Below, piece by piece: positions 1-64,000 of a stretch of DNA of 64,000 nt (position 1 is the stretch's first letter; the number at the start of each line of letters is the position of its first letter). Below the pieces are notes generated by a model that was not told the origin of the DNA, did no database searches, and saw only the letters and a list, made by a program, of their open reading frames with translations. Position numbers and translations under genes: made by a program. Origin of the DNA: Microgenomates group bacterium (GTDB lineage: Bacteria > Patescibacteriota > Microgenomatia > UBA12405); the NCBI GenBank assembly GCA_049303675.1, contig JBAQNJ010000001.1:278994-342993 (forward strand), written 5' to 3'.

Positions 1-2013
1 TAATTTTGGTGATGGACAAATAATTGTGTTACCTACCCCCTCAATAAAATAATCATTTTTACCACAAATATTTTTTTTATATATTCCTGTTGGGGGTATC
101 AACCATGATTGATTTTCCTGTCCTTTCAACATTTCTCTCATCATATTATTCCAAATTGGCGTCGCTCCCGAAATTCCTGATGCCACCCAACTCATCGGAG
201 TATTATCATTATTGCCTACCCACGAGGCTACTAATATATTTGGTGTCCACCCGATACACCAATTATCCCGTAAATTATTGGTTGTCCCAGTTTTGACTGC
301 AATTGTATAGTTATCAATCTTAAGTTTTGAATTTAATCCAAATATCGGTGAACGTGCCTCATTATCACTTAGGGCACTATCAATTAAAAATGCCAGCTTA
401 GGGTCGACCGTATCCACCAACTCTGGTTTAATTGTAAATATTTCTTCACCCAAAAAATTTTCAATTTTTAATATTGGATTTATTTCAGTTTTTTTACCCA
501 TATTGGCAAATATGCTATATGCATTTGCCAACTCAATCATTTTTACCTCACCACTACCCAGAGCCAACGATAAACCATATCTACTTCTATCCTGCCAAGT
601 ACTTATTCCCATTTGTTGTGCCAAATCTATCATATTGTTTATCCCATTGGCCGCCAACAATTTTACTGAGGGAATATTCAATGACGACGCCAGTGCCGTT
701 CTCAATGTCACTTGCCCCATATATTTACCATTGTAGTTAACTGGTACATATTCTTTTTGCCCAGCAATTTTATAACTAACTTTTTGGTCATCAACCAGTG
801 ATAACAAACTCCAGCCATTTTTCAAAGCCAGCAGATAATTTATAGGTTTAATCGAAGACCCAGGTTGTCGTAGAGCAGTCGTCACATTATATTTTCCATC
901 TATTTCCGTAGAAAAATAATCTTTTGACCCCACCATAGCCAATACCTCCCCAGTATTAGGTTTTATCACCAATGCCGCCCCGTTAGAAATTCTCAATCTA
1001 TTTATATTTTTTAGTTCGTTAGCGACTATTTGTTCAGCTTTTTTTTGAACATTTATATCGAGACTTGTAGTTACTACCATTCCTCTTCTGGCAAAATTAT
1101 CATATCCAAATTTATTTTGTAAATATTCTTTTATGTAAAATACAAAATGAGGAGCCTCGATTTTTGGTTTGACAGTTACGATATTCAGACTTTGACTTCT
1201 TATTTCCGCAGCTTCATTTTCACTGATGAATCCAGCTACTCTCATCTCATTAATAACATGTTTTTGTCGCAAATACCCAAACCTTGGGTTATCTCCAGTT
1301 GGTGAATATGACGATGGTGCTGCTGGCAATCCTGCCAGATAAGCAGCCTCCGCTGTGTTTATATTCCACACATCTTTGCCAAAATATTTTTTTGATGCTT
1401 CTTCCACCCCATATGTTTCCCCGCCATATGCCACTTGGTTAAAATATTTCTCCAATATCTCCTCTTTCGACAATTTCCTCTCTACCATTAGGGCTAGGAT
1501 CATCTCTCGCATTTTTCTCGTCCATGTTTTTTCATTTGAAAAAAAGACACTTTTCACTAACTGTTGGGTTATTGTCGATCCTCCTCGTAGTCCATCACCA
1601 CTGTTTCTCTTTATAAAATTATAAATCACAGCAGTCATCACGCCTCTTAACGATATCCCCTGATGTGACAAGAACTCCTTATCTTCGATCGCCAATGTTG
1701 CTTGAATTAAGGATTTGGGTATTTTTTCATACTTTACCCATGTCCGATCTTCATCTTTATAGAATTTATAGAGCAGGACTCCATTTCTATCCAATATTTG
1801 TGAAGAAAGATTTGGCGGGTTATATATTTCATTTACATTCGGTAGGTTTCTCATTACATTAATATAAAACCACACCAAAATCCCCGTCATCCCCGTCAAC
1901 ATCAGGCCCACAAACAAATACGAAGATATGATTCTCCAAAATATTTTTAAAACATATAGTACTGGCCAGCCCAACGCGATTAATATTTTTTTAAGCCGGA
2001 AGATCAATCGCAT
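1..2013 (-). CDS. Class A penicillin-binding protein (PBP1A-like), second paralogue; 3' end cut by window edge
   Basis: Absent from the ORF track because it runs off position 1. Manual translation from the ATG (complement of 2011-2013) gives MRLIFRLKKIL... It has GT51 motifs EDKEFLSHQGIS and RGGSTITQQLVK and transpeptidase motifs PGSSIKP and KTGTTNN, colinear with the neighbouring 727-aa PBP. Confidence 0.85.
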   Translation of the reverse strand, partial: MRLIFRLKKILIALGWPVLYVLKIFWRIISSYLFVGLMLTGMTGILVWFYINVMRNLPNVNEIYNPPNLSSQILDRNGVLLYKFYKDEDRTWVKYEKIPKSLIQATLAIEDKEFLSHQGISLRGVMTAVIYNFIKRNSGDGLRGGSTITQQLVKSVFFSNEKTWTRKMREMILALMVERKLSKEEILEKYFNQVAYGGETYGVEEASKKYFGKDVWNINTAEAAYLAGLPAAPSSYSPTGDNPRFGYLRQKHVINEMRVAGFISENEAAEIRSQSLNIVTVKPKIEAPHFVFYIKEYLQNKFGYDNFARRGMVVTTSLDINVQKKAEQIVANELKNINRLRISNGAALVIKPNTGEVLAMVGSKDYFSTEIDGKYNVTTALRQPGSSIKPINYLLALKNGWSLLSLVDDQKVSYKIAGQKEYVPVNYNGKYMGQVTLRTALASSLNIPSVKLLAANGINNMIDLAQQMGISTWQDRSRYGLSLALGSGEVKMIELANAYSIFANMGKKTEINPILKIENFLGEEIFTIKPELVDTVDPKLAFLIDSALSDNEARSPIFGLNSKLKIDNYTIAVKTGTTNNLRDNWCIGWTPNILVASWVGNNDNTPMSWVASGISGATPIWNNMMREMLKGQENQSWLIPPTGIYKKNICGKNDYFIEGVGNTIICPSPKL

Positions 2014-2017
2014 TATT

Positions 2018-4201
2018 TTAGTTTATTATTGTCGCTGGTAATTTTACAGGGTTTGTCGTCCCTTGTTCCAAGTTCACTGGACAGTCCAAACACACCCACA
2101 CACCGGTGGCGTCTTTAACAGACAGGTGGTCTTGCCATTCAATGTTCGGACTGGTATCCCCCTCTTTAAGAGTCCTATTAGTGTCTTTGTCAATCAAAAT
2201 ATTATTACGTATAGACAACCTCTCTGTTGGCATAAACTCCTTTTTGAAGTATTCATAGTGTGAATCACAGCCACCATCTGGCGGTAGTTGCCCAGTTAAG
2301 TTGCACACCGATATTTTCTGGACATCTGTTGGCATCACTTGTTTCCTGACTATTTTATCCTTCAGTAGATATGTCATGATCTTATTCCAAATTGGTGCCG
2401 CCCCCGTGGTGCCTGATACCAAATATCCCATTCGACTATTATTATTATTGCCTACCCAAACAGCAGTTACCACATCTGGTGTATAGCCAATCGTCCAGTT
2501 GTCTCTTAGATCATTAGTGGTTCCCGTTTTTACGGCCACCTCACTATGCCCCTTTATATTTAGAAGGGAGCCTCTGCCAAATACCATTCCCCTAGCTCCA
2601 TCATCACTCAATATGTCAGTGATAATAAAACTTGTCTCTCGTGATAGCACTCGTTTTCCCGGAGTTTCTGTATAAGTTTCTAGGACTTTTCCATGGCGAT
2701 CAGTTATGTTTAGAATAGTAGTTAGCTCCTGCCTTACCCCTCCACTTGCCAAAACTCCAAAGGCAGTATTCATCTCTGTCATCATCACTTCGCCTCCTCC
2801 CAGTGTTAAGGACAGTCCATATTTCGATGGATCAGCATAAGTACTAATTCCCATGGCCGATGCCGATGCTACAAAATTTACTAGACCCACCAACTTTAGC
2901 GTTTTTACAGCGGGGATATTCAGCGAATTTCCTAGAGAATTCCTCAAACTTTGGACTCCAGTATATCTTCCTCCATAGTTTGTTGGACAATATAGTTTTT
3001 GTCCCTCGACTCTAAAGCACGTCGGGTCATCATCAAAAACTGTTGCGGCTGTGACCACCCCCATTTCAATTCCGGTGGCATAATTTAGAGGCTTGATTGA
3101 TGATCCCGGCTGTCTTAGAGCAGTGGTGACATTAAAATTTCCTTCAATATCATTGGCAAAATAATCTTTTGAACCGACCATTGCCAGCACCTGTCCATTT
3201 TTCGGATCAGTAATTAGGGCAGCTCCGTTGCTAATTTTCTGTTTTACTAGTTTAGCTGTCTCTGAGGCAATCACTTCTTGGGCATATTGTTGGATATCTC
3301 TATCGAGGGTAGTGGTAATCCTCAGCCCTCCTTCGTTCACCATTTTTGCTCCATATTTTTCAATCAGTTGTTCTTTGACATAAAACACAAAATGAGGTGC
3401 TATTATTTTGTCTTTATTCACATAATAGTTCAAAGGTTCTCTTGCCGCCTTCTCTTTTTCCTCGCCACTAATATATCCCAGTTCCTGCATTCTGGTTAGC
3501 ACCATTAACTGCCTATTTTTTGCCGCTTCAGGGTAAGCAAAAGGAGAGTACCTTGTCGGCGAACCAGGTAGACCAGCCAATAATGCCATCTCTGCCAAGG
3601 TTAAGTCTTTGACCTCCTTGTTAAAGATCCCCTTGGCAGCTGCCTTCACCCCCCAGAGTGTTCCTCCGTATGGTGTTTGGTTAAAATACATCTCCAATAT
3701 CTGGTTCTTACTATATAGTATCTCAGTTACTACCGTCAAAATAGCCTCTTTTATTTTTCTGGTCCATGTCCTTTCTCGGGTCAACAGGGCGTTCTTGACT
3801 AATTGTTGGGTTAGGGTCGATCCTCCTTGAAGCCGTTTTTGAAAGACTGTCCTGTACAGACCTCTCATAATACCTTTTATATCAAAACCGCTGTGGCTAT
3901 AAAAATTAGCATCTTCTATCGCCATTGTTGCTTTTATCAAGTTAATCGGTATTTGGTCAAATCCAATAATATTTCTTTTTTTATCCGTATATATTTCATA
4001 AATTAGTTTTCCATTTCTGTCGTATATTTCCGAATTTTCAGGGTAAGTGTCAGAACTCAACTTTGTCGGATTGGGCATATCCCGCAGCACATAACCTAAT
4101 CCCAACACAATTATTAGCAATATACCCCCCGATACTATTAGTCCTTTATTCCTAATAGTTCCAGGTAAAACGAGTTTTTTCTTGATTTTTGTTCCAATCA
4201 T
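2018..4201 (-). CDS. Class A penicillin-binding protein (transglycosylase + transpeptidase)
   Basis: N-terminal TM segment. GT51 motifs EDANFYSHSGFD and GGSTLTQQLVKN; SxxK motif PGSSIKP; KTG motif KTGTTND. Confidence 0.9.
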   Translation of the reverse strand: MIGTKIKKKLVLPGTIRNKGLIVSGGILLIIVLGLGYVLRDMPNPTKLSSDTYPENSEIYDRNGKLIYEIYTDKKRNIIGFDQIPINLIKATMAIEDANFYSHSGFDIKGIMRGLYRTVFQKRLQGGSTLTQQLVKNALLTRERTWTRKIKEAILTVVTEILYSKNQILEMYFNQTPYGGTLWGVKAAAKGIFNKEVKDLTLAEMALLAGLPGSPTRYSPFAYPEAAKNRQLMVLTRMQELGYISGEEKEKAAREPLNYYVNKDKIIAPHFVFYVKEQLIEKYGAKMVNEGGLRITTTLDRDIQQYAQEVIASETAKLVKQKISNGAALITDPKNGQVLAMVGSKDYFANDIEGNFNVTTALRQPGSSIKPLNYATGIEMGVVTAATVFDDDPTCFRVEGQKLYCPTNYGGRYTGVQSLRNSLGNSLNIPAVKTLKLVGLVNFVASASAMGISTYADPSKYGLSLTLGGGEVMMTEMNTAFGVLASGGVRQELTTILNITDRHGKVLETYTETPGKRVLSRETSFIITDILSDDGARGMVFGRGSLLNIKGHSEVAVKTGTTNDLRDNWTIGYTPDVVTAVWVGNNNNSRMGYLVSGTTGAAPIWNKIMTYLLKDKIVRKQVMPTDVQKISVCNLTGQLPPDGGCDSHYEYFKKEFMPTERLSIRNNILIDKDTNRTLKEGDTSPNIEWQDHLSVKDATGVWVCLDCPVNLEQGTTNPVKLPATIIN

Positions 4202-13270: not shown

Positions 13271-13298
13271 ACTGTTAACTGTTCACTGATAACTATTT
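13271..13298 (+). repeat. Tandem heptamer array ACTGTTA ACTGTTC ACTGATA ACTATTT
   Basis: Read directly. Intergenic between the rpe-like gene and gap, overlapping the gap stop codon. Confidence 0.8.
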
Positions 13299-14327
13299 AC
13301 AAATGTACATAGCCATCTCTATCAACCGACATGAATAGCCGTATTCGTTATCGTACCATGCTCCAATACACACCATATCATCGGCCACTACATTGGTCAT
13401 TCGAGCATCGATAATACATGATCCATTGTTACCAATAATATCCGATGACACCAATGGTTCATAAGATACTTTCACTTTTCCCACTAGTTCTGGGCTCACG
13501 CTAGCCTCTTCGAAAATAGCGTTTACTTCTTCTATGGTTGTTTTTCGGACCATCTTAAAAGTTAAATCGGAATACGAGCCACAGACTACAGGAACTCGGA
13601 TGGCCGTCCCTGCAAACCTCCCTTTTGCCTCAGGATAAGCCGCAATTACCGCCTCCGCCGCCCCAGTGGCTGTCGGGACTATATTTATTGCCGCCGCTCT
13701 TGCTCGTCTTGGGTCTTTTCCCCCACCATCAACTATATTTTGATTGGTAGTATAGGCATGAATTGTTGTCAAAGATCCTTCTTGGAACCCAATTTTTTCA
13801 TCAATCAGTTTGACAATTGGTGCCACACAATTTGTGGTACATGAACCATTGGAAATTAATTCTTCCCCTTTATATCTATTTTCATTTACTCCCAGTATGA
13901 ATACTGGAATTTTTGGATCCTTAGCCGGCGCCGATAATACCACTTTCTTTGCTCCACCTCTAATATGCCCCAACGCTTTTGTGTCATTAAATGCCCCAGT
14001 GCACTCCAACACTACTTCAGCCCCATAATCACCCCAACGAATTTTACTCGGATCCGTTTCACCGAGTAAGGGAATTACTGTTTCCCCGACTGCCAATCTT
14101 CCCAATTCTCCGCCTTTTTGTGGATCAGCTGTTTCTACCTTCATCGGCATCCTGCCATATACCGAGTCATATTTAAATTGCATAGCATAGGCCTCCGCCG
14201 GCAAGTCTCCTTTAGTATTTATCGCCACTACTTCCACATTATATTTTTCCAGTAGTATCGCCCGTAGCACCACCGTTCCAATTCTCCCAAAACCATTAAT
14301 TCCAATTTTTATTTTTTTATTTTCCAT
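13293..14327 (-). CDS. gap: Glyceraldehyde-3-phosphate dehydrogenase
   Basis: INGFGRIGT NAD-binding motif and SCTTNC active site; 344 aa. Confidence 0.95.
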   Translation of the reverse strand: MENKKIKIGINGFGRIGTVVLRAILLEKYNVEVVAINTKGDLPAEAYAMQFKYDSVYGRMPMKVETADPQKGGELGRLAVGETVIPLLGETDPSKIRWGDYGAEVVLECTGAFNDTKALGHIRGGAKKVVLSAPAKDPKIPVFILGVNENRYKGEELISNGSCTTNCVAPIVKLIDEKIGFQEGSLTTIHAYTTNQNIVDGGGKDPRRARAAAINIVPTATGAAEAVIAAYPEAKGRFAGTAIRVPVVCGSYSDLTFKMVRKTTIEEVNAIFEEASVSPELVGKVKVSYEPLVSSDIIGNNGSCIIDARMTNVVADDMVCIGAWYDNEYGYSCRLIEMAMYICK

Positions 14328-14375: not shown

Positions 14376-15434
14376 TTATTCCCATGCTACTAATTTTCCT
14401 TTTGTCAACAGTTCCAACATCATTCCACCACCAGAAGCTATCAAATCAATTTTATCCTTCATTCCCAAATTCTCAATCGATGCAGTTGTATCACCACCAG
14501 CAATTATCTTATAAGCATTTGATTCAGCCACAGCGACAGCTATCTCTTCTGTCCCTTTTTTACAATCTTCTTTTTCGAACCATCCCATCGCTCCCGCCCA
14601 GACTATCATCTTTGATTCACTAATTACTTTTTTAAATTCTTCAATATCCTCCTCGCTCAAATCAAACGTGTCCTCCCTCAACTTAGCAATTTTTATTTTT
14701 CCACTATTCACTGTTAACTGTTCACTATTAACTAAAAGCGGTAATTTACCGCCAATAAGTATGTTATCAGCGATCTTGAGGATTTCAGCAATGTGGTCCA
14801 GTTTGTCTTCCTTTGCTCCCCCTAAAATAATGGTCAAGGGACTAGTCTTTTCCTCCACCACTTTCATTATTTTATTTACCTCTTCAATAAACGCCAGTCC
14901 ATAAAATCCAGGCATCTCTTTATACAACATGTTAGACCTTTCTCTTCGGTGGGACACCGCTAGGGCATCATTCACAAAAAATTGACAAATTTCCACCAAG
15001 TTTTTCAAAAAATCACTGTCATTATTTTCTTCACCCTTCCAAAAACGTAAATTTTCCAAAAACACAATCTGATTTTTAGATATCGCCATATCTAATTTTT
15101 CAAAATTACCCACATCTTCCACAAAAATACTCTCAATCATATTTTCGCCATTTGGTTCAAGTAGCGTCATCAACTCCAAGTAGACAGGTCTAAGTGATAA
15201 CTTTGGATCATAGCCATCAGGCTTGCCCGCCGTAGCCTTGGCGTAGGTGGGTCTACCTAGTTTTCCCACAATCACTATCTTACATTTTTTATCCATCAGT
15301 AACCTTATCGTTGGAATTGACTTAGACAACCTAGCATTGTCCCTCACCATCCCCTCCATCATAGGCACGTCCAAGTCTAGTTTTAGAATTACTTTTGTTT
15401 CTGGTAATATTTCCTCAACCGATCTCAGTTTCAT
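14376..15434 (-). CDS. pgk: Phosphoglycerate kinase
   Basis: LDLDVPM...RDNARL...IPTI N-terminal motifs and GGDT..A near the C-terminus. I start at Met33 of the track ORF (MKLRSVEEIL), which removes a 32-codon extension that runs back over the 3' part of rpiB and leaves a 20-nt overlap with the rpiB 3' end. Confidence 0.9.
   Translation of the reverse strand: MKLRSVEEILPETKVILKLDLDVPMMEGMVRDNARLSKSIPTIRLLMDKKCKIVIVGKLGRPTYAKATAGKPDGYDPKLSLRPVYLELMTLLEPNGENMIESIFVEDVGNFEKLDMAISKNQIVFLENLRFWKGEENNDSDFLKNLVEICQFFVNDALAVSHRRERSNMLYKEMPGFYGLAFIEEVNKIMKVVEEKTSPLTIILGGAKEDKLDHIAEILKIADNILIGGKLPLLVNSEQLTVNSGKIKIAKLREDTFDLSEEDIEEFKKVISESKMIVWAGAMGWFEKEDCKKGTEEIAVAVAESNAYKIIAGGDTTASIENLGMKDKIDLIASGGGMMLELLTKGKLVAWE
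14703..14737 (+). repeat. Tandem heptamer array ACTATTC ACTGTTA ACTGTTC ACTATTA ACTAAAA
   Basis: Read directly. Lies inside pgk, translated as LLVNSEQLTVNSG. Confidence 0.8.
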
Positions 15435-15861
15435 ACTTTTTAATTTTATTAATTCTTCTGATATACCTCTCCTCAGATCCAAAAGTAGTTGCCAAAAACA
15501 GCGCCATAATCTTTTCGTTATCTTCCACACTTACCGAATCTGCCGACAAGCAAAGTACATTAATATCATCGTCATTTCGAGCCGCCCGCACTAGCTTCTC
15601 CGAAGTGCACAACCCAGCCCGTATTCCTTTGACCTTATTGGCCGCAATCGATGCACCAGCTCCTGAGCCACATACCAATATTCCCTTAACATTTTCCACC
15701 GCCACTTTTTCTGCCAGCTTTATGGCTATATCCGTATAATCATCATCTTTGTCGTACTCGGATGCTCCCAAATCCCTAAATTCATAATGTTCGGATTCCA
15801 ATATTTTTTTTAGTTCTTCCTTGAGTCTAAAGCCTCTATGATCGGCGCCAATATAAATCAT
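15415..15861 (-). CDS. rpiB: Ribose-5-phosphate isomerase B
   Basis: IGADHRGFRLKE and CGSGAGASIAANK motifs; 148 aa. Confidence 0.9.
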   Translation of the reverse strand: MIYIGADHRGFRLKEELKKILESEHYEFRDLGASEYDKDDDYTDIAIKLAEKVAVENVKGILVCGSGAGASIAANKVKGIRAGLCTSEKLVRAARNDDDINVLCLSADSVSVEDNEKIMALFLATTFGSEERYIRRINKIKKYETEIG

Positions 15862-20214: not shown

Positions 20215-20249
20215 CCGGTGATAGTCCCGCCGCTGCGGGACGGTTATGC
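20215..20249 (+). pseudogene. tRNA-Tyr-like 5' fragment with its D-loop replaced by a GC hairpin
   Basis: CCGGTGATAG-TCCCGCCGCTGCGGGAC-GGTTATGC matches positions 1-10 and GGTTATGC of the intact tRNA at 20532. It has its own TGATATAAT box (20195-20203) and CAGTAAC leader. The GIY-YIG ATG lies in the TTATGC. Confidence 0.6.
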
Positions 20250-20512
20250 AAATAATGTATTATGTCTATATTTTAAAAAGTTTGGTTGACGGAAAAATTT
20301 ATACAGGTTTTACTTCTGACCTAAAGCACCGATATCAACAACATTTAGACGGAATGGTTTTTTCGACCAAAAATCGTCGACCACTTAAACTAATTTATTA
20401 CGAAGCTTTTTTATCAAAAATAGATGCAGCAAAACAAGAAAAGTATCTAAAGTCAGGTGGTAAAGCAAAAATTGATTTAAAAACAAAAATAAAAAATAGC
20501 TTAGAACTTTGA
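20246..20512 (+). CDS. Small stand-alone GIY-YIG nuclease-domain protein
   Basis: YVYILKSLVDGKIYTGFTSDLKHRYQQH is the GIY-YIG signature; 88 aa. Confidence 0.8.
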   Translation: MQIMYYVYILKSLVDGKIYTGFTSDLKHRYQQHLDGMVFSTKNRRPLKLIYYEAFLSKIDAAKQEKYLKSGGKAKIDLKTKIKNSLEL

Positions 20513-36006: not shown

Positions 36007-36046
36007 ATCATTATTATATCAATAAAGCCCATAATATACAATGTTT

Positions 36047-46490: not shown

Positions 46491-46497
46491 TCTTAGA

Positions 46498-46565
46498 GTG
46501 TTTAGAAGACCCTTAGGGGTTGACAACCGAGTCCGCCAAATGGTCCACGGTGCCCACTAAAACAC
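46498..46565 (+). promoter_or_regulatory. Structured metK 5' leader, candidate SAM-I/IV-like riboswitch
   Basis: Closing helix GTGTTTAG...CTAAAACAC encloses ACCC-TTA-GGGT, GACAACC, CCG...CGG and GGTGCCC (compare the SAM-I/IV core GGCAACC...GGUGCC). Followed by CCTT...AAGG around the SD. Confidence 0.35.
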
Positions 46566-46589
46566 GCCTTATCAATTAAAAGGAAAAAT

Positions 46590-47690
46590 ATGAATTATCC
46601 TCAATTTTCGTCCGAATCTGTCTGTGAAGGTCACCCCGACAAAGTCTGTGACCAAATTAGTGATGCTATCTTAGACGCTGCCTATACCCTCGACCCTATG
46701 GCTCGGGTCGCTATCGAGACTTTGGCTACGGTCAACAAATTAGTTTTAGCCGGAGAAGTTACTATTAATGGTACTCTCGATTATGCCGCTATTGCCCGCC
46801 AAAAGATCGCCGAGCTCGATTTTCTCGATTCAGTTTTAGATTTTACCGACAAATGCGACATCGAAATTGCTGTCCACACACAGTCACCCGATATTGCTCA
46901 GGGCGTCAATGCTGGTGGAGCCGGTGATCAGGGGATGATGTTTGGTTATGCTTGTCGCGAGACACCCGAACTAATGCCCCTTCCCATTTCCATGGCTCAC
47001 AAATTATGCCGTCAAATGGACGAATTACAGCGCATTCATCGTTGGATGCGCCCCGATGGCAAGTCTCAGGTTACCGTTCGTTATGATGGTCAGACTCCGG
47101 TAGCCATCGAGCGAGTTGTCTTGGCCAAGCCCATGAATTACGACCTCGCCCCTGCTGATTATTCTCACTTTTTCTATCAAAATGTCATTGTTCCAGTCTT
47201 AGCTGAATACAAGTTTGAAATCAGTGAAGACAAAATGATTCTCAATGGTACCGGTAAATGGACCATTGGTGGCCCCTCCGCCGATACTGGCGTTACTGGC
47301 CGCAAAATTGTCGTTGATACTTACGGTGGTATGGGTCGTATTGGTGGTGGTTGCTTTTCCGGCAAGGATACTACCAAGGTCGATCGCAGTGCCGCCTACG
47401 CCGCTCGCTATATTGCCAAAAATATTGTGGCTGCAGGTCTCGCCGATCGCTGCGAGGTTCAATTAGCCTATGCTATTGGTCAAGTCCTGCCTGTTGGTCA
47501 ATCTATTGAGACTTTTGGCACTGCCAAGTCAGAATTAAAGGTAATCGAAGATTTTGCATGGAAATTACTCGAATTATCGGTCGCTGGTATCAACAGTGGT
47601 CTCAATCTCCGCGTGCCAATGTATGCCAAAACCGCCCGCTATGGCCACTTTGGCCATCCCGAGTATCCATGGGAGAAGATAAAAGGCTAA
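46590..47690 (+). CDS. metK: S-adenosylmethionine synthetase
   Basis: SESVCEGHPDKVCDQISDAILDA, GAGDQGMMFGYA and DTYGG motifs. Confidence 0.95.
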   Translation: MNYPQFSSESVCEGHPDKVCDQISDAILDAAYTLDPMARVAIETLATVNKLVLAGEVTINGTLDYAAIARQKIAELDFLDSVLDFTDKCDIEIAVHTQSPDIAQGVNAGGAGDQGMMFGYACRETPELMPLPISMAHKLCRQMDELQRIHRWMRPDGKSQVTVRYDGQTPVAIERVVLAKPMNYDLAPADYSHFFYQNVIVPVLAEYKFEISEDKMILNGTGKWTIGGPSADTGVTGRKIVVDTYGGMGRIGGGCFSGKDTTKVDRSAAYAARYIAKNIVAAGLADRCEVQLAYAIGQVLPVGQSIETFGTAKSELKVIEDFAWKLLELSVAGINSGLNLRVPMYAKTARYGHFGHPEYPWEKIKG

Positions 47691-48436: not shown

Positions 48437-50217
48437 TGAATAATAATCTATATAAAAATAGTACTTTCCCCCTTTTTCAAGGGGGGATTAAGGGGGGTTT
48501 TGTATTAAAAACTTTTTTTTACTTTTTACTTTTTACTTTTGTTTTTATTTTAATTTTTACTCTCCCTCTTATTTTCGGTTTTGGCAAAACCGGCAAAAAC
48601 ACTCTTGTTTTAGGCAAAGACTATTCCTTACTCTCCAAATCCCAAATAATTTCTCGCTTATCAGTCGATTTTCCTCTTCCTCCCAGCCTGAATATTCAGA
48701 CCTCAAACCGCAAATTTACTCTCAATTTAGCCGATATCTCCGCCCAATACGACTATCCCTCAATCGCATCCAATCTACTATTCCGTCGACTTCATAGTGG
48801 AGTTTTACCTTATTTTAAGGCATTTTTTCAGCCAAAAAACTTTAGCCTTAGTCTCGATTACAGCTCCGATTCACTCGATAAACAAATTGCCAATATCTCC
48901 CAGCAGGTCGATCATCCCTTTGTTCCCTCCCAATTTAGTCTCGATGAGAAATCCAAAGAAATCATCCTCAAAAACGGTGAACGGGGGCAAAGAGTCAATT
49001 CTGAAGAATTGAAAAACCGTCTCGTCTCTGCTCTTCGTTATTATGAGGCATCTACCCCTATCGACCTTCCCCTCGACCCTATTGGTGAGTTGCCCACTAC
49101 TGATCAAATTAGTAGTGCCACCGCTGTCGCTCAGTCCCTTATCGGCAAGAAGCTCGAATTTTCCGCCCCCGACGAGGTTGTCACCCTCGACGACAAGACC
49201 CTTATTTCTTGGGTCGACTTTGGGACCATTTGTCGCCGCTCCACAGTTGATGATTATGTCGCTGGACTGAAGTCTAGTCTGAAAAAGGATCCTGTCGAAG
49301 CCGTCTTCAAATTTGAAAATGGTCAAGTCCTCGAATTTCAACCATCTAAAAATGGTTATCTATTAGATGACTCCAATTTAAGCCAACAAATTTGTTCAAA
49401 AATAGTTGAACTATCCCAATCCTCGGACAAAATAATTAAGGATAAATTCCCAGTTATCACCCTCGAAACCAAGACTCAAAACTCTGATGTCAACAATTTA
49501 GGCATCAAAGAATTAATTGGCAGTGGCACCTCTACCTTCCGTCACAGTAGTACTATTCGCAATATCAATGTCGAGCGCGGCGCCCAAATAGTCAATCGCA
49601 TTTTAGTCGCCCCAGGCGAAAAGTTTTCCTTTGTCAAAGCTCTTGGCGATGTCACCATCGAAAATGGTTTCAAAATGGCTTATGTCATTCGGGCCGGCAA
49701 GACGGAATTAGACGTTGGTGGTGGTATCTGTCAGGTCTCCACCACTTTTTTCCGCGCCCTTCTCAATTCTGGGCTCGATATAATTGACAGACGCAACCAC
49801 GCCTATCGAGTCCAATACTATGAAGAAGACATGCCCCCAGGTTATGACGCCACTGTTTTTATCCCCAGTCCTGATTTATCTTTTGTCAACGACACTGGCC
49901 ATCATATCCTTATTCAAAGTAAATATGATGGTAAAAATAAACGGCTTACCTACGATCTTTATGGTACCTCCGATGGTCGATCTGTCGATATTAGCAACTA
50001 TCGCCAATGGGGAGCTGCTCCTGCTCCTCCGGCGGTCTATATTGACGATCCTACCTTACCGGCGGGCAAAGTCGTTCAGGACGAGCACGCTATTCCAGGA
50101 CTGAAGACATCTTTTGACTGGAAAGTGACCCGAGCCGGAGAGATAATCCATCAGAAAACCTTTACCAGCAATTTCGTCCCTTGGGCCGCCGTTTTCCGTC
50201 GCGGACCGCAAATTTAA
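48436..50217 (+). CDS. VanW family protein
   Basis: GGGICQVSTTFFRALLNSGL and RNHAYRVQYY VanW core; N-terminal TM anchor. Confidence 0.8.
   Translation: MNNNLYKNSTFPLFQGGIKGGFVLKTFFYFLLFTFVFILIFTLPLIFGFGKTGKNTLVLGKDYSLLSKSQIISRLSVDFPLPPSLNIQTSNRKFTLNLADISAQYDYPSIASNLLFRRLHSGVLPYFKAFFQPKNFSLSLDYSSDSLDKQIANISQQVDHPFVPSQFSLDEKSKEIILKNGERGQRVNSEELKNRLVSALRYYEASTPIDLPLDPIGELPTTDQISSATAVAQSLIGKKLEFSAPDEVVTLDDKTLISWVDFGTICRRSTVDDYVAGLKSSLKKDPVEAVFKFENGQVLEFQPSKNGYLLDDSNLSQQICSKIVELSQSSDKIIKDKFPVITLETKTQNSDVNNLGIKELIGSGTSTFRHSSTIRNINVERGAQIVNRILVAPGEKFSFVKALGDVTIENGFKMAYVIRAGKTELDVGGGICQVSTTFFRALLNSGLDIIDRRNHAYRVQYYEEDMPPGYDATVFIPSPDLSFVNDTGHHILIQSKYDGKNKRLTYDLYGTSDGRSVDISNYRQWGAAPAPPAVYIDDPTLPAGKVVQDEHAIPGLKTSFDWKVTRAGEIIHQKTFTSNFVPWAAVFRRGPQI
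48465..48501 (+). repeat. REP-like element, short form (copy F)
   Basis: TTTCCCCCTTTTTCAAGGGGGGATTAAGGGGGGTTTT. Translated as FPLFQGGIKGGF in the VanW N-terminus. Confidence 0.85.
48516..48536 (+). repeat. Tandem heptamer (TTTTTAC)x3
   Basis: Read directly. Encodes FYFLLFTF, the same peptide as at 29563-29597. Confidence 0.9.
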
Positions 50218-51782: not shown

Positions 51783-52884
51783 AAAAGTTTAATCGTGGAT
51801 CACGGTCCAGAGTCTCGGGATCCGACCATTCTTTTCGCTTCGCCAATTCCCAGCCCACTCTTCCAATCATGGCCGCATTATCGGTATTTAGCCATATTTT
51901 CGCTGGCATATAAATTAGCAATTTCTTTTTTCTGGCTAGGGCTCTCAGTTTTTTTCGAAGCATCATATTGGCCAGTACCCCTCCCGAGGCCATTATAGTT
52001 TTTGGCTCATATTTATCAATCGCCAAATCAAATTTTCTAATCAAAGTATTGAATACCGACTCTTGAAATGTTGCCGCCAGACTAGCCAAATTTTTATTTT
52101 TTTCCTCTATTGACCAGTCTTTTATTTTATAATAAAAACTAGTTTTCAGTCCCGAAAAGCTATAGTCCAACACTTTTTTATCGGCGAGCGGTTTGGGTAA
52201 TTCAAACAAATTATTATTGGCGCCAGCTTGCATCGCCAGTCGCTCTATCACCGGCCCCCCAGGGTATCCCAAACCCAGTAATTTTGCCGCCTTATCCAAC
52301 GCTTCTCCCGCCGCATCATCCAACGTTTCCCCCACTACAGTATATTTTTGTAAGGGCGTACCCTTGTGGTCGCCCTTTTCCAAAAGTACAATCTTCGTAT
52401 GTCCTCCACTTACCGTCAGGCAAATAGCTGGCAGCTCTATCTCTCTCTCTGGCAATCCTTTACTATTTTTGACGAGGTTAGACAATATATGTCCCTCCAC
52501 ATGATTCACCGCCACCAATTTTTTATTATATTTTATCGCCAATTCACAGGCAGTTTTCACCCCTACTCCTAGAGCAATCGCCAGCCCCGGCCCTTTCGTC
52601 ACTGCAATTACATCAACAGACTTCATGTAATATTCCAATGTCTTTCTCTCCCTTGTCAAAGGGAGATGCCCCGAAGGGGAGAGGGATTGAGAACGTTTCA
52701 ATGCCGTCATTATCACCGGCAAAATTCTCGCTTGATGTGCTCTTTTCGCAATATCCGGTACCACCCCACCCCAATCTTTATGCAAATCAGTTTGCGAGGA
52801 AATTACATTACTTATCACTCGATCATTTTCCAGCACTGCCGCACAGGTATCATCACAGCTGGTTTCAATCGCCAATATTTTCAT
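51781..52884 (-). CDS. tsaD: tRNA N6-adenosine threonylcarbamoyltransferase TsaD
   Basis: ILAIETSCDDTCAAV, NHVEGH, SGGHT and DDAAGEALDK motifs. Carries two repeat-derived in-frame insertions. Confidence 0.92.
   Translation of the reverse strand: MKILAIETSCDDTCAAVLENDRVISNVISSQTDLHKDWGGVVPDIAKRAHQARILPVIMTALKRSQSLSPSGHLPLTRERKTLEYYMKSVDVIAVTKGPGLAIALGVGVKTACELAIKYNKKLVAVNHVEGHILSNLVKNSKGLPEREIELPAICLTVSGGHTKIVLLEKGDHKGTPLQKYTVVGETLDDAAGEALDKAAKLLGLGYPGGPVIERLAMQAGANNNLFELPKPLADKKVLDYSFSGLKTSFYYKIKDWSIEEKNKNLASLAATFQESVFNTLIRKFDLAIDKYEPKTIMASGGVLANMMLRKKLRALARKKKLLIYMPAKIWLNTDNAAMIGRVGWELAKRKEWSDPETLDRDPRLNF
52345..52377 (+). repeat. GC-palindrome element, copy 2 (inside tsaD)
   Basis: TTTTTGTAAGGGCGTACCCTTGTGGTCGCCCT. 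Translated on the minus strand as KGDHKGTPLQK. Confidence 0.7.
52643..52688 (+). repeat. REP-like element, long form (copy G, inside tsaD)
   Basis: TTTCTCTCCCTTGTCAAAGGGAGATGCCCCGAAGGGGAGAGGGATT. The second hairpin is CCCC-GAA-GGGG instead of CGGC-GTA-GCCG. Translated on the minus strand as QSLSPSGHLPLTRERK. Confidence 0.9.
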
Positions 52885-54159: not shown

Positions 54160-54191
54160 TCCCCCTTGTTAAAGGGGGATTTAGGTGGATT
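54160..54191 (+). repeat. REP-like element, short form (copy H)
   Basis: TCCCCCTTGTTAAAGGGGGATTTAGGTGGATT, 18 nt upstream of the lemA ATG. Confidence 0.85.
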
Positions 54192-54208
54192 AGGTGTTAT
54201 TATAAAGT

Positions 54209-55727: not shown

Positions 55728-56816
55728 TCAAAAATTTATCTCCCGTGTCGTCTCATCCACATAGCTAAAATTAATCGGTATATAGTTAGTTATTTTTTTT
55801 AATTTATTTAGGTATTCTTCACCCATATTTTCCGGCCACTCAATACAGGCAACTAGCTCTGAGCTTGTCGAAGGGAATTGTTCCAAAAATTTTATTTCCT
55901 CAAATTCATATTTATTTCCCAATCTATACAAATCAAAATGTAAAAATTTCTTGCACTGATAACTGTTCACTGATAACTGTTCACTGATTAAATATTCATT
56001 ATAAATTACAAACGTCGGGCTAGTTATTTTTTCCTTTACCCCGAGTAGTTGTCCTATCTTTCGGGAAAATACAGTCTTTCCACAACCTAGGTCTCCGCTC
56101 AATCCAAACACTAGAGGTTTTCTCTCCCTTGTTAAAGGGAGAAGCGGCGTAGCCGAGAGGGATTTGTTCAACAAAAATTCAGCAATTTTCTCCGTTTCCT
56201 TTTCCGATTTAGAAATTAGTGTTTGGGATTTCCCCACTATCAAGTCTCCCCGTCTGAGGATTTTTATCTCCGGTTCAGTGGCGTCAATTACTGTCGATGG
56301 TTTGTTCCGTGGTAATTTACCACTGTCCACCATCATATCGATCATCATCAATTTTTTCTGGGACAGAGTTTTTACAAAGCTTGCCAGTGAATAGTGGGGA
56401 GTCCGTCCCGACAGATTCGCTGACGTCGCCGTCACTGGCCCTCCCACCGCCTTCACCAGATCCATTATCCATTGGTTATCCGGTATTCGTATTCCCAATG
56501 TCCCATTTTCCGCCTCTATACCCTTGGCCACCTTATGTTTGCCCTCCGACACAATCGTAAAAGGTCCGGGTAGCAAGTTTGCATAAATATTTTCTGCATT
56601 TTCACTCAGTTTTACAAAATCTTGTGCCATTTTTTTATCTGCTACAGCTATCGATATCGCCTTCCCCGTCCATCTGTTTTTAAATGCGAGAAGTTTATCT
56701 GTTGCGCTCTGGCTTCTCGGATCTACCGCCAAAATGTACACCGTATCACTCGGGAATATTACTAGCCCACCATCTTTTATTATTCTGGCCGCCTTTTCAA
56801 TATCCTCGACTTTCAT
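55728..56816 (-). CDS. Fusion of a Sua5/YrdC (TsaC) domain and TsaE
   Basis: N-terminal half: FPSDTVYILAVD, LPGPFT, TATSANLSG, STVID, ILRRG (YrdC fold). C-terminal half: GDLGCGKTVFSRKIG, SPTF, HFDLYRL, IEWPE (TsaE). Confidence 0.8.
   Translation of the reverse strand: MKVEDIEKAARIIKDGGLVIFPSDTVYILAVDPRSQSATDKLLAFKNRWTGKAISIAVADKKMAQDFVKLSENAENIYANLLPGPFTIVSEGKHKVAKGIEAENGTLGIRIPDNQWIMDLVKAVGGPVTATSANLSGRTPHYSLASFVKTLSQKKLMMIDMMVDSGKLPRNKPSTVIDATEPEIKILRRGDLIVGKSQTLISKSEKETEKIAEFLLNKSLSATPLLPLTRERKPLVFGLSGDLGCGKTVFSRKIGQLLGVKEKITSPTFVIYNEYLISEQLSVNSYQCKKFLHFDLYRLGNKYEFEEIKFLEQFPSTSSELVACIEWPENMGEEYLNKLKKITNYIPINFSYVDETTREINF
55955..55989 (+). repeat. Tandem heptamer array ACTGATA ACTGTTC ACTGATA ACTGTTC ACTGATT
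   Basis: Read directly. Lies inside the TsaE module, translated as ISEQLSVNSYQ. Confidence 0.85.
56118..56165 (+). repeat. REP-like element, long form (copy I, inside the TsaE module)
   Basis: TTTCTCTCCCTTGTTAAAGGGAGAAGCGGCGTAGCCGAGAGGGATTT. Translated on the minus strand as SLSATPLLPLTRERKP just before the P-loop strand. Confidence 0.9.
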
Positions 56817-57771: not shown

Positions 57772-58488
57772 TTATTTATCTTTCTCTTCTTTCTTTTTCT
57801 CCTCCGCCTTCTTGGCATCATCTGCCGCCTTTTCTTCTTCTGTCTTTTGGTTCATAGCTGGGGCGACCACTACTTCAGTCGTCTCTTCTACTACTGGTTC
57901 GACTTCTACCTTAGGTTCTTCGACTTTGACCACTACTTGTTCTGGATCATTTTTAATTTCGATTTTACTTCGATCAACAATTAGGTCAGCTACCGTAATT
58001 TCTGAATCTAGGGTCACTAGTTTTGCCAAATCAACCTCAATTTTTTCTGGTAAATCAGTTGGTAGTGCTTCGACCTCAATTTCGTTCACTGCTTCCACCA
58101 GTACATTTCCTAGTTTTACTGCCTCCGATTCGCCCACAAATTCAATCGGGACGAAGGTGGTAATCTTTTCTTTCAGGTTCACTTTATAACAGTCAATATG
58201 AGTCATTAGTCCGGTGACAGGGTGATATTGGGGGTTACGGAACAATATTGGCAATGCTTTTCCATCTAGTTCTAGTTCTACTAGTCCTGATTCTCCCGCA
58301 TGGGCAAAAATTGCGGCCATTTCTTTTTCATTTATTTGAATTGAAACAGGTTCAAATCCGTGTCCATAGACACTTGAGGGCATTAATCCCTGTTTGCGTA
58401 GTTGGCGGACTTTTTTACCAGTAATTGTTCGGACACTAGCGGACAGTTTTGATTTTTCTTTGGTCATATTATTCTTGGAAGCCTTCAC
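57772..58488 (-). CDS. rplY: Ribosomal protein bL25 (Ctc form) with K/E-rich C-terminal extension
   Basis: LSASVRTITGKKVRQLRKQGLMPSSVYGHG N-terminus and a two-domain Ctc-like length. Confidence 0.85.
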   Translation of the reverse strand: MKASKNNMTKEKSKLSASVRTITGKKVRQLRKQGLMPSSVYGHGFEPVSIQINEKEMAAIFAHAGESGLVELELDGKALPILFRNPQYHPVTGLMTHIDCYKVNLKEKITTFVPIEFVGESEAVKLGNVLVEAVNEIEVEALPTDLPEKIEVDLAKLVTLDSEITVADLIVDRSKIEIKNDPEQVVVKVEEPKVEVEPVVEETTEVVVAPAMNQKTEEEKAADDAKKAEEKKKEEKDK

Positions 58489-60259: not shown

Positions 60260-61222
60260 ATGATTAATTATAATCTGACAGTAGATAGGATAAAAAACAG
60301 CCTGCAAAACGGGAGATGTTTCTATGGTGAAACCTATGATTCTCATGGCATGACAATTGACTCTCTAAAGTACTATTTTTTCTTATCTCTACTACATCTG
60401 ATATTAGCTAAATCAAATATCAAAACTGAGTCGACGGTGATAATCGCCGATATTGCCTCGGGTATCAACAAATCTAGTCAAAAAATAAATTGCGATATAG
60501 ATGAGGTGGGGAAAAATCGTCTAGATTATTGTGAAAAAATAAAAAAATATTTTAATTTACCTATCAAGTTTGTTTTAATGAGCAACTTTTTTGCCACCAA
60601 TCCCATTGCAAAACTAGTTGAACAATTCGAAAATGTTGGTCATAGCAACCCCAAAGTGACTGAACTTTTAGCAAAAACAGTACTCCAAAATAAAATTAAA
60701 CAAGAAAATGATTCGGGCTTTCGTTATGGTTATGAAGAAATTGCTACCGGATCATTTTTTAATATCAAAATTGGCCCACCGCGAGAAAAATATTACGACC
60801 AAGCCGCCAAAATTATTTGCAAAAAATTAAAACTGAATCAATTAAAAAGTATTTATCTGACACCCACGTTTCCTTTGGGTCAAGATTTTTCCTATTTCCT
60901 AACTCACCCCGAAATAGAAGAATTTGGACTTACACCATACAAAGCCGGTAGTAACCAAATGCAGGATTTCAGAATAACTATAAATACAACCACGATAGAA
61001 AAAGTTGAGCAACTAATCAACGATACTTACATCACTACTAATCCAAATTTACCAAATCCAATATTTGATTTACTGTTTATTGCCAATATGGCAGAAAAGT
61101 TAAAAAACAAAGAATATGAGTTTCCAGTTTACAAAAATAATATTTATATAAATCCAAAAAAACTAAAGAGTTTTGCTTTCCAGAAAATAACTAGGTTATT
61201 GATTGATCTAAAAAATCTATGA
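60260..61222 (+). CDS. Degenerate class Ic aminoacyl-tRNA-synthetase-like protein (TyrRS/TrpRS fold, HIGH and KMSKS lost)
   Basis: By-eye alignment to trpS and archaeal TyrRS: FYGETYDSHGMTIDS (HIGH region), TVIIADIASGIN, IKFVLMSNF, IKIGPPREKYYDQAAKII (compare PVGIDQHPYILLARDVAKKI), IYLTPTFPLG. ATG 2 nt after the tRNA; the track start at 60200 lies inside the tRNA. Confidence 0.45.
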   Translation: MINYNLTVDRIKNSLQNGRCFYGETYDSHGMTIDSLKYYFFLSLLHLILAKSNIKTESTVIIADIASGINKSSQKINCDIDEVGKNRLDYCEKIKKYFNLPIKFVLMSNFFATNPIAKLVEQFENVGHSNPKVTELLAKTVLQNKIKQENDSGFRYGYEEIATGSFFNIKIGPPREKYYDQAAKIICKKLKLNQLKSIYLTPTFPLGQDFSYFLTHPEIEEFGLTPYKAGSNQMQDFRITINTTTIEKVEQLINDTYITTNPNLPNPIFDLLFIANMAEKLKNKEYEFPVYKNNIYINPKKLKSFAFQKITRLLIDLKNL

Positions 61223-62385
61223 ATAGCCCACAGGCAATTGCCCAATCACATCAAGAATATCAATCTAAATTAACTATCAAGAAAAAAATTGGGGATTATT
61301 ACTTGGATCAAACCACCAAAAATGGTCTCTCTAGCCTTGATAAAATTAAGGCCTATTTACCTCTTGATCTACAGCCACTTCATTTTCGACGCAGCATCGC
61401 TATCGCCCATCTTGATCTTGAACCAATCATCGAAAAAATTGCCAAGAATCAGGAGTTTGTTATTGTTTCCGGTCTCAATCCGTCTTCTCCCTTACACCTC
61501 GGTCATAAGGCCCTGTTTGATTTACTCCTAAGTTTACAAGGACTAGGAGCCAGAGTATTTATTCCTCTGACCAACGACGAGTCGCTAGTTGATGGTAAGG
61601 TTAGTTCTTTGGCTCAGAGTCTAAACATTGCCAAAACCTCAATTCTCCCCGACATTATCAATTTTGGATTTGATCCGGACAAAACCCATATTTTTATTGA
61701 CTCCGAATATCCCCAGCTCTACAACTTCGCTATGTATCTCAGCCAACATATTTCCTTTGGACAACTTCGTCAAGTCTTTGGTGACGATTCACTGACTACT
61801 CCTGGCCAAATTTTTTATCGTGGAGTCGTTCAAATGGCGCAGATCCTGTTACCCCAACTCCCTGAATTTGGTGGTCCAAAAGTGACTTTGATTCCAGTTG
61901 GTATTGACCAGCACCCATATATATTATTGGCTCGTGATGTTGCCAAAAAAATTGGTATGATTCCACCGTCTGAGTTGGTTATTAGATTCTTGCCTAGCTT
62001 ACTAGGGCCAGAAGATAAAATGTCGGCATCAAAACCAAACACTGCTATTTACCTTAGTGACACTCCAGAGGCAATTCACAAAAAAATTAGTCGAGCCTAT
62101 ACCGGTGCTGTTTCAGCCCTTGATGTATATCAAGAACGGGGTGGTATTCCCGAAATATGCTCAGTTTTTACTCTTCTAAATTTTCATCATCCCGACGGTG
62201 TATTTGTCGAAAATATTAAACAAAGTTATTTGCATGGTCTTATTACCATGTCTGAGTTGAAAGAACTTACAACAGCTTTTATTACCGAATTAGTCACCCG
62301 CCACCAGCAAAAAAGCCCGCCTACCTCTGATCAAATCAATAAGTACATTTTAACTACACCATTAAAATCACTTTTAACCCTATGA
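61219..62385 (+). CDS. trpS: Tryptophanyl-tRNA synthetase, archaeal/eukaryal type
   Basis: PSSPLHLGH (HIGH), IPVGIDQHPY, KMSAS (KMSKS) and GGIPEIC. ATGA overlap with the upstream ORF. Confidence 0.9.
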   Translation: MNSPQAIAQSHQEYQSKLTIKKKIGDYYLDQTTKNGLSSLDKIKAYLPLDLQPLHFRRSIAIAHLDLEPIIEKIAKNQEFVIVSGLNPSSPLHLGHKALFDLLLSLQGLGARVFIPLTNDESLVDGKVSSLAQSLNIAKTSILPDIINFGFDPDKTHIFIDSEYPQLYNFAMYLSQHISFGQLRQVFGDDSLTTPGQIFYRGVVQMAQILLPQLPEFGGPKVTLIPVGIDQHPYILLARDVAKKIGMIPPSELVIRFLPSLLGPEDKMSASKPNTAIYLSDTPEAIHKKISRAYTGAVSALDVYQERGGIPEICSVFTLLNFHHPDGVFVENIKQSYLHGLITMSELKELTTAFITELVTRHQQKSPPTSDQINKYILTTPLKSLLTL

Positions 62386-63510: not shown

Positions 63511-63527
63511 ATGTTAAACTTCATCAT

Positions 63528-64000
63528 ATGATCGAACCAATTGTTCTTCAAAATAATCAAACACTCGCAAAACTTGGCATTGAATATACCAACCTCGAGC
63601 ATCCACCCATCAAAGAAATCTTTGATTGTATGCGTTTTCTTGGTCTGCCCATTTCCGAAGGTTTTTCCACCCTTATCATGAAGGCTGATGATCGCTATGT
63701 GGCCATCATCCGTCGCGATGATTGTAAATTAGACTTAAACAAAGCCTGTAAGGTAATTGGCTGCTCCAAATTAAATTTAGCATCCCCCGACGAGTTTGAA
63801 GCCTTAACCCACTTACCTTCCGGAGCCGCTTTCGTCGTTAATTCAGGAATAAAAACATATCTCGACCAAAAGCTATTCGATAAAGAATACCTAATTGGTG
63901 GATCAGGCAGTTTGTCAGTCAGTAACAAATACCGTTCCGTTGACCTCAAAAAAATACCCGACAGCATCATTGTCGATATTGCTGATATTAAGGCAAAACA
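63528..64000 (+). CDS. YbaK/ProX-like aminoacyl-tRNA deacylase domain protein; 3' end beyond window
   Basis: Not in the ORF track because it runs off the end. Manual translation MIEPIVLQNNQTLAKLGIEYTNLEHPPIKEIFDC...STLIMKADDRYVAIIRRDDCKLDLNKA...LPSGAAFVVNSG...LIGGSGSL fits the YbaK/EbsC editing-domain pattern. Confidence 0.6.
   Translation, partial: MIEPIVLQNNQTLAKLGIEYTNLEHPPIKEIFDCMRFLGLPISEGFSTLIMKADDRYVAIIRRDDCKLDLNKACKVIGCSKLNLASPDEFEALTHLPSGAAFVVNSGIKTYLDQKLFDKEYLIGGSGSLSVSNKYRSVDLKKIPDSIIVDIADIKAK

Follow-up and report, generated by a model that had tools for sequence, protein, structure and literature searches.

A stretch of 64,000 nucleotides of compact bacterial DNA (the window; GC content 0.40), from a genome labelled 'Microgenomates group bacterium' by NCBI, raises the question of why the codon usage of its genes follows the strand on which they lie. 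An initial annotation had described genes of the + strand as ending their codons mostly in C or T and genes of the - strand in G or A, and had proposed that the physical + strand is pyrimidine-rich at silent sites whatever the direction of its genes. Here, we confirm the strand-specific codon usage and the pyrimidine-rich + strand, follow both into related genomes and along the chromosome, and consider what might cause them. The best matches to the window came from metagenome-assembled genomes (MAGs) of Candidatus Shapirobacteria, which are syntenic with it at 62-86% amino-acid identity.

Silent-site asymmetry between the strands

Over the whole window, the + strand consists of 16.1% G, 24.0% C, 27.4% A and 32.6% T, giving bulk GC and AT skews of -0.199 and -0.087, respectively. 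The GC skew was negative in every 4-kb window along the sequence and flattened solely over the 16S rRNA gene, because this RNA itself has more G than C:

24120-25618, + strand, 16S rRNA gene, on the C-rich strand

We called 65 genes at the level of open reading frames (ORFs), of which 36 lie on the + strand (29.3 kb of coding sequence) and 29 on the - strand (23.0 kb). Pfam matches confirmed 37 of them, including murA, metK, gnd, trpS, uppS and a recF-like gene among the 16 on the + strand, and two class A penicillin-binding proteins, gap, pgk, tpi, rpe, tsaD, a Sua5-TsaE fusion and ribosomal protein L25 among the 21 on the - strand. Four-fold degenerate sites were tallied in the Pfam-confirmed genes only, each read in its coding orientation, with skews at these sites denoted GC4 and AT4:

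16 + strand genes: A.167, C.413, G.067, T.353; GC4 -0.72, AT4 -0.36; 77% C/T
21 - strand genes: A.382, C.147, G.284, T.188; GC4 +0.32, AT4 +0.34; 67% A/G

The contrast in codon endings was therefore borne out, and the per-gene comparison of four-fold skews by strand, a check named beforehand in the initial annotation, separated the two sets (Mann-Whitney p = 2.8e-7 for GC4 and likewise for AT4). GC4 was at or below -0.50 in all 16 + strand genes and above zero in 20 of the 21 - strand genes, so that the GC4 ranges do not overlap at all and the AT4 ranges overlap barely. Valine illustrates the difference, with GTC 46%, GTT 40%, GTA 8% and GTG 6% in + strand genes against GTG 38%, GTA 34%, GTC 16% and GTT 12% in - strand genes; for alanine, GCC and GCT make up 89% of codons in + strand genes, and GCA and GCG 58% in - strand genes. 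Representative genes are as follows:

36883-38211, + strand, murA (Pfam EPSP_synthase), GC4 -0.71, AT4 -0.54
46590-47690, + strand, metK, GC4 -0.80, AT4 -0.63
29526-31226, + strand, SpoIID-domain protein, GC4 -0.79, AT4 -0.49
16888-17808, + strand, gnd (6-phosphogluconate dehydrogenase), GC4 -0.63, AT4 -0.10
61219-62385, + strand, trpS, GC4 -0.50, AT4 -0.24
2018-4201, - strand, class A penicillin-binding protein, GC4 +0.17, AT4 +0.32 (paralogue at 1-2013, - strand)
13293-14327, - strand, gap (GAPDH), GC4 +0.41, AT4 +0.36
14376-15530, - strand, pgk, GC4 +0.41, AT4 0.00
57772-58488, - strand, ribosomal protein L25/TL5, GC4 -0.18, AT4 +0.51

The L25 gene, the sole confirmed gene to depart from the GC4 usage of its strand, may do so through codon selection in a highly expressed gene.

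The part of the skew that belongs to the strand was taken as the mean over both gene orientations, with 95% confidence intervals from a bootstrap over genes, and was compared with 50 kb of Escherichia coli K-12 under the same measure:

GC component: -0.519 (-0.568 to -0.468); E. coli K-12, +0.023
AT component: -0.349 (-0.406 to -0.288); E. coli K-12, -0.017
Purine/pyrimidine component: -0.432; E. coli K-12, +0.007
Keto/amino component: -0.051; E. coli K-12, +0.021

The silent-site asymmetry is almost purely one of purines against pyrimidines, not of the usual G+T type, and its magnitude is about 20 times that of the E. coli control, in keeping with the earlier description of an unusually strong purine/pyrimidine bias. 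A secondary component tied to the coding strand favors C over G by about 0.20 in GC4 skew. In the 9.5 kb of intergenic DNA, the skews share their signs with the four-fold sites but are weaker (GC -0.21, AT -0.08).

The products of the Pfam-confirmed genes also differ by strand. Proteins encoded on the + strand are richer in Q (2.05-fold, p = 5e-7), H, F, S and L, and those encoded on the - strand are richer in E (1.9-fold, p = 1e-5), K, M and V. Of the residues proposed in the initial annotation, S, L and F (+ strand) and K, E and M (- strand) held up, P, T, Y, G and R showed no significant difference, and Q and H, the strongest + strand markers, had been missed. Stop codons occur at a density of.036-.041 per codon in + strand frames versus.063-.074 in - strand frames. 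The longest antisense open run covers 40% of gene length opposite - strand genes versus 23% opposite + strand genes, and about 11 ORFs of at least 100 amino acids lie antisense to real genes on the + strand versus 1 on the - strand. These observations support the earlier proposal that the strand bias explains the excess of long antisense ORFs on the + strand.

Orthologues on opposite strands and extent of the asymmetry

To cover sequence on either side of the window, flanks were read from contig JBAQFH010000001.1 (998,417 bp; GCA_049287145.1), in which the window lies reversed at about 118.5-182.5 kb. With 8.0 kb on the left and 9.5 kb on the right, the stretch covered is 108,960-190,452 (81.5 kb, 8% of 998 kb).

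Comparing the amino-acid content of orthologues on opposite strands had been suggested at the outset. We identified three orthologue pairs that lie on opposite strand classes in relatives, and each copy carries the codon usage of its local strand. The window copy of MurA, on the C-rich strand, has GC4/AT4 of -0.71/-0.54, whereas a relative's 73%-identical orthologue on the G-rich strand has +0.16/+0.18. For the SpoIID-like protein, the values are -0.79/-0.49 in the window versus +0.21/+0.04 in the copy of a relative (locus L030), and for a gene in the flank they are +0.32/+0.42 in the source contig versus -0.88/-0.92 in locus L032. The shift reaches the protein: MurA has a purine fraction at codon positions 1+2 of 0.589 on the G-rich strand versus 0.525-0.561 on the C-rich strand, and an E+K content of 15.7% on the G-rich strand versus 9.7-12.7% in four C-rich-strand orthologues. 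The bias is tied to the physical strand and not to gene direction, as had been claimed, nor to transcription, and both gene sets, the intergenic DNA and the flipped orthologues agree on this.

Loci of relatives were obtained by scanning genome contigs with a hairpin repeat of the window (described below) as the probe, the loci being the matches listed. In 21 Shapirobacteria loci (about 14 MAGs) among these matches, four-fold sites were A.152, C.378, G.071 and T.399 in C-rich-strand genes and A.356, C.110, G.261 and T.273 in G-rich-strand genes. Loci labelled Woesebacteria showed the same pattern under our own ORF calls. In eight 20-kb loci with database gene calls, C-rich-strand genes had GC4 of -0.48 to -0.80 and AT4 of -0.16 to -0.49, and G-rich-strand genes had GC4 of +0.15 to +0.52 and AT4 of -0.04 to +0.21. 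In total, more than 25 loci of relatives carry the strand pattern, which was absent from a Parcubacteria MAG used as a control and from E. coli. The asymmetry is a lineage-wide property that reaches the Shapirobacteria-like lineages.

The initial annotation had seen no switch of sign in 64 kb. The single sign held, and it extends over the 81.5 kb of the source contig; taken alone, the window was uninformative on this point, as 64 kb is 6% of 998 kb, and even a stretch of 81.5 kb has a chance of about 84% of containing neither switch point of a normal genome. Contigs of two relatives reach further. JGI Ga0401391_000003 (836,690 bp) has GC skews of +0.130 at 286-307 kb and +0.168 at 660-682 kb, and JACPHO010000001.1 (563,806 bp) has -0.187 at 16-38 kb and -0.123 at 352-374 kb, so that points 314-374 kb from each other share one sign on either contig. 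These two-point tests favor a one-signed skew in the clade, similar to that of the closed Ch65 chromosome discussed below, without establishing it. Matches to DnaA boxes in the window were scattered and formed no cluster, their excess on the + strand being a mere effect of composition; no replicase gene lies within the 81.5 kb covered, and no within-genome paralogue family was useful for reaching other regions.

A polar hairpin repeat and other features of the window

The repeat used as the probe is a hairpin, TCYCCCTT-GTYA-AAGGGRGA, often followed by GCGGCGTAGCCG and AGAGGGATT, with a purine-rich tail. All eight copies in the window share one orientation, as expected from the earlier remark that the interspersed repeats run parallel to the bias:

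31803-31835, + strand, hairpin copy
32172-32217, + strand, hairpin copy, 18 nt upstream of a + strand ORF starting at 32235
33187-33232, + strand, hairpin copy, 18 nt upstream of a + strand ORF starting at 33250
36044-36089, + strand, hairpin copy, 67 nt upstream of smpB (36156)
48468-48500, + strand, hairpin copy, at the 5' end of a VanW-domain gene
52643-52688, + strand, hairpin copy
54160-54192, + strand, hairpin copy, 17 nt upstream of lemA (54209)
56119-56164, + strand, hairpin copy, within the - strand Sua5-TsaE ORF

Half of the copies (4/8) end 17-67 nt upstream of + strand start codons, and two lie inside called ORFs (VanW and Sua5-TsaE). The stem pairs a UCUCCC arm with a Shine-Dalgarno-like GGGAGA. 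Among the matches listed, the forward hairpin was always on the C-rich strand in 27 loci of other Microgenomates MAGs, an apparent exception in orientation (L011) being resolved by its four-fold sites, and the repeat accompanies only C-rich-strand genes. A fragment of a Y1/IS200-like transposase (PF01797, E-value 4e-8) lies beside gyrB in a Shapirobacteria MAG (L110, 5316-5984, + strand). The substrate of this transposase family is single-stranded DNA at the replication fork, and, speculatively, such an enzyme could account for strand-polar hairpins in the manner of a REP/RAYT-like system.

The 20-nt core of the hairpin was also found in unrelated phyla. It is present in MAGs labelled 'uncultured Gammaproteobacteria' (L003, L006, L009, L010, L044 and L083; SRP192927 and similar), which have a GC content of 30-43% and extreme bulk GC skews of -0.42 to +0.51 over 2-8 kb. 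Either these MAGs are Patescibacteria under a wrong label, or they represent a further lineage of extreme strand asymmetry.

The RNA genes of the window comprise the 16S rRNA (+), tRNA-Tyr (+), tRNA-Trp (+) and tmRNA (-) genes, together with an S-adenosylmethionine (SAM)-I/IV riboswitch before metK. The 16S rRNA gene is flanked by the recF-like gene and uppS and is solitary: the window contains neither a 23S nor a 5S gene, and none was noticed in the flanks, which were read without an Rfam scan. Further features are as follows:

46493-46599, + strand, SAM-I/IV riboswitch directly upstream of metK; its score of 41.1 bits equals exactly the Rfam gathering score
39247-39678, - strand, tmRNA gene, long (432 nt)
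36156-36566, + strand, smpB, 2.7 kb from the tmRNA gene
55728-56816, - strand, single ORF in which Sua5/YrdC (TsaC) and TsaE domains are fused
20246-20512, + strand, small paralogue (88 amino acids)
38893-39132, - strand, small paralogue (79 amino acids)
27314-28249, - strand, homologue of 5-hydroxymethyl-dU DNA kinase (PF18723 HMUDK_hel, E-value 2.6e-97)

The hairpin copy in the Sua5-TsaE fusion falls in the linker or the N-terminal TsaE region, and the fusion is kept at about 70% identity in two relatives (L015 and L122). The two small paralogues, on opposite strands, share 47% identity over 66 amino acids; the - strand copy is assigned to GIY-YIG (PF01541) by the database, and a further GIY-YIG gene occurs in the syntenic flank of the JACPHO contig (L134).

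The 5-hydroxymethyl-dU DNA kinase, an enzyme of phage thymidine-hypermodification pathways, is encoded here in a cellular genome, by a solitary gene between uppS and a small T4SS-pilin-like ORF. The gene has the codon usage of its local strand and is therefore not a recent arrival. DNA modification by this kinase was considered as a cause of the skew and rejected, as the gene has no partner genes in its vicinity and as Shapirobacteria UBA2283 (L036), a relative with the same skew, lacks it in the syntenic interval.

Origin of the asymmetry

The best reading, to which we assign a probability of about 0.7, is a lineage-wide, replication-linked mutational asymmetry of the physical strand that must involve transversions. 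At four-fold sites, the purine fraction of the + strand is about 0.28, whichever strand codes; because transitions leave the purine content of a strand unchanged, either strand-asymmetric transversions or selection are needed. In a Shapirobacteria-like Microgenomates chromosome of about 1 Mb, strand-tied mutation pressure would dominate composition at weakly selected sites, with purine-to-pyrimidine transversions on the + strand exceeding the reverse by about 2.5:1 at equilibrium. At two-fold sites of the + strand, C/(C+T) is 0.31-0.36 and G/(A+G) is 0.23-0.31, indicating near-symmetric transitions; a single asymmetric transversion class would suffice, because such transitions would spread its asymmetry to both base pairs. 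The candidates comprise G to T (through 8-oxoguanine on one template), G to C, A to C (through oxidized dGTP) and depurination, and with free transition rates each single-class transversion model fits the equilibrium frequencies, so that the fit would not discriminate among them. The pressure is strong enough to shift codon positions 1+2, producing the opposition of E, K, M and V to Q, H, F, S and L, and stop codons become rare on the pyrimidine-rich strand.

A link with replication is suggested by published Microgenomates genomes. Kadnikov et al. 2020 (PMC7143001) described a whole-chromosome excess of C over G with a monotonic cumulative GC skew in 'Ca. Chazhemtobacterium aquaticus' Ch65 (order UBA1400), and the same disparity in one genome each of Collierbacteria and Beckwithbacteria, whereas family PJMF01 lacked it. 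They found that the disparity was not due to gene distribution (449 vs 389 genes), saw 'no clear trend' in AT skew, noted rRNA genes on the C-rich strand of Ch65 and proposed unidirectional replication. Ch65 has also been singled out as an outlier to Chargaff's second rule among 17,873 genomes (PMC11514846), and beyond these two papers we found no further paper on strand disparity in Microgenomates. The window resembles the Ch65 type in belonging to the same superphylum, in its small genome (about 0.8-1.1 Mb), in a strand that is strongly C>G whatever the gene orientation, and in a C-rich strand that bears rRNA genes and a slight gene excess; its bulk GC skew of -0.20 compares with -0.33, -0.14 and -0.16 computed from Table 1 of PMC7143001. 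It differs in lineage, its nearest relatives being Shapirobacteria, and in combining T>A with C>G (T 32.6% vs A 27.4%; AT4 component -0.35), whereas Ch65 has A and T in about equal amounts, and the published Microgenomates genomes show no evident T>A component in bulk. The single sign is known here over 81.5 kb, in Ch65 over the whole closed chromosome; the silent-site, amino-acid and flipped-orthologue analyses are additions to that study. Judged by this match with the Ch65, Collierbacteria and Beckwithbacteria genomes and by the unidirectional replication proposed for them, the asymmetry is probably replication-linked and of one sign over most or all of the chromosome.

The C/T-rich strand may be the leading strand. 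In each of six independent regions, most of the coding sequence is on the C-rich strand, and this strand carries the 16S gene in the window as in Ch65, gyrBA in three loci of relatives (L110, L129 and L132) and an 18-gene dcw cluster in two (L131 and L137). If the assignment is right, the GC skew is inverted relative to the bacterial rule and the AT skew is canonical; in the canonical pattern the leading strand is rich in G and T, unlike the C>G with T>A found here on one strand. The orientation of RNA genes was tried as a marker of the leading strand and gave a mixed result, with the 16S gene and three tRNA genes on the C-rich strand and two tRNA genes and the tmRNA gene on the G-rich strand; the tmRNA gene lies on the G-rich strand in the window but on the C-rich strand in the Woesebacteria-labelled locus L030.

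Several points weigh against the mutational reading or parts of it. The intergenic skew (-0.21/-0.08) is far weaker than that at four-fold sites (-0.52/-0.35), a difference that a purely neutral equilibrium model does not predict. Genes for tRNAs, tmRNA, ribosomal protein (L25) and glycolysis are distributed over both strands, and the leading-strand assignment is correspondingly weak. Ch65 has no bulk AT disparity, and the T>A component may not be common to all lineages. The closest relatives are too diverged, with protein identities of 80% at most, and three Logan contigs are 100% identical to the window, so that no mutation spectrum could be obtained. Only 8% of the contig was covered, which is compatible with an ordinary two-replichore pattern, and the two-point pairs are merely suggestive, with a joint chance of about 0.03-0.10 under symmetric bidirectional replication, assuming equal replichores and a genome of 0.84-1.1 Mb.

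Such a two-replichore skew, of the kind known from Borrelia and Chlamydia, is the strongest alternative, although we consider it unlikely. The genome, small and weak in repair, would then replicate bidirectionally, with the window confined to a single replichore and the sign changing at an origin and a terminus elsewhere; the 81.5 kb covered could readily miss both switch points, in a window that also lacks a DnaA-box cluster. Strand-separated codon usage is known in at least ten small genomes, with Borrelia burgdorferi, Treponema pallidum, Chlamydia, Buchnera, Blochmannia, Bartonella, Tropheryma and Lawsonia among the genera and species named (PMC2671203). As here, the encoding strand mainly sets codon and amino-acid usage in these small genomes of low to medium GC content, most strongly at third positions. 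Their contrast is always between G/T-ending (leading) and C/A-ending (lagging) codons (PMC2671203), a keto/amino asymmetry for which strand-biased transitions, cytosine deamination for example, can account, whereas in the window C and T go together, the keto/amino component is near zero, and C/T-ending stand against G/A-ending codons, a purine/pyrimidine asymmetry that transitions cannot produce. The magnitude differs as well, with GC4 of -0.72/+0.32 here against a third-position GC skew of about +0.32/-0.13 in Lawsonia (PMC2671203). Closed genomes of related Microgenomates are one-signed, and the two relatives' contigs keep their sign between the paired points 314-374 kb from each other, which also argues for the replication-linked asymmetry of one sign. 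Animal mitochondria, with their strand-displacement replication, offer a precedent for a one-signed skew over a whole circular genome that shapes codon usage and protein composition; their asymmetry is of the G+T vs A+C type, from deamination of the displaced strand, and is not purine/pyrimidine.

Selection on the DNA or RNA itself, through purine loading, polar segregation motifs or avoidance of structure, appears very unlikely as the main cause. The strict polarity of the hairpin to the skew, in the window and in the 27 loci of relatives among the matches listed, speaks for it, and four-fold skews exceeding intergenic ones hint that 'neutral' sites are not all equal. However, mRNAs of the two gene sets are oppositely loaded, purine-rich from - strand genes and pyrimidine-rich from + strand genes, which implies no common benefit at the RNA level, and a motif could not bring about a net purine/pyrimidine skew of about 43% over the whole set of four-fold codon families. 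Firmicutes and Tenericutes have a purine-rich leading strand, a positive correlation of AT with GC bias, and PolC (Zhang & Gao 2017, PMC5291525; Charneski et al. 2011, PMC3174206). They are similar in that the GC and AT skews of a strand agree in sign, a bulk purine/pyrimidine asymmetry. In Firmicutes, this asymmetry is located in codon positions 1-2 of strongly co-oriented genes, has been ascribed to selection, and is very weak at sites that are four-fold degenerate or intergenic (PMC3174206); here, the asymmetry is strongest at four-fold sites and present in intergenic DNA, with gene orientation near balance (56:44).

A bias driven by transcription or translation on the coding strand, combined with uneven gene orientation, is highly improbable. 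It could claim the secondary coding-strand component and the departure of L25 from the usage of its strand, but the four-fold skew reverses its sign with gene orientation so that the + strand is C/T-rich in both gene sets, orientation is close to even (29.3 vs 23.0 kb), intergenic DNA has the same sign, flipped orthologues switch their codon usage, and misassignment of gene strands is excluded by the Pfam matches. An artefact of the assembly or sequencing of a single MAG can be dismissed, since Logan assemblies made independently from two runs match at 100% identity over 24 kb and the pattern recurs in more than 25 loci from MAGs of many studies and in published closed genomes.

Within the favored replication-linked mutational asymmetry, a more specific model is possible and offered tentatively: Shapirobacteria-like Microgenomates might replicate mostly or wholly unidirectionally, with a C/T-rich leading strand and strand-asymmetric transversions, for example from unrepaired oxidized or lost purines on one template.

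In summary, strand disparity in Microgenomates and strand-specific codon usage in small genomes were known already, and the window is a further, well-characterized example. What is added is the purine/pyrimidine type of the silent-site asymmetry, which needs a transversion bias, the reshaped amino-acid composition, and the extension to Shapirobacteria-like lineages. In such genomes, the stop-poor strand will lead gene finders to spurious ORF calls, the strand of a gene confounds inference from codon usage and amino-acid composition (expression, horizontal transfer, phylogeny), and origin prediction and growth-rate estimates that assume a V-shaped skew (of the iRep or PTR type) may fail. How bacteria replicate and repair their DNA is read from sequence mainly through strand asymmetries, and for an uncultured lineage composition is almost the only evidence. 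The deamination transitions behind the textbook pattern cannot yield a purine/pyrimidine asymmetry at silent sites; such an asymmetry points to a different imbalance of damage and repair. If the proposed model is true, these bacteria would live under a mutational regime undocumented at neutral sites in other bacteria, one that rewrites codon usage and protein composition genome-wide, and the asymmetry may be a pointer to unidirectional replication in a major uncultured radiation.

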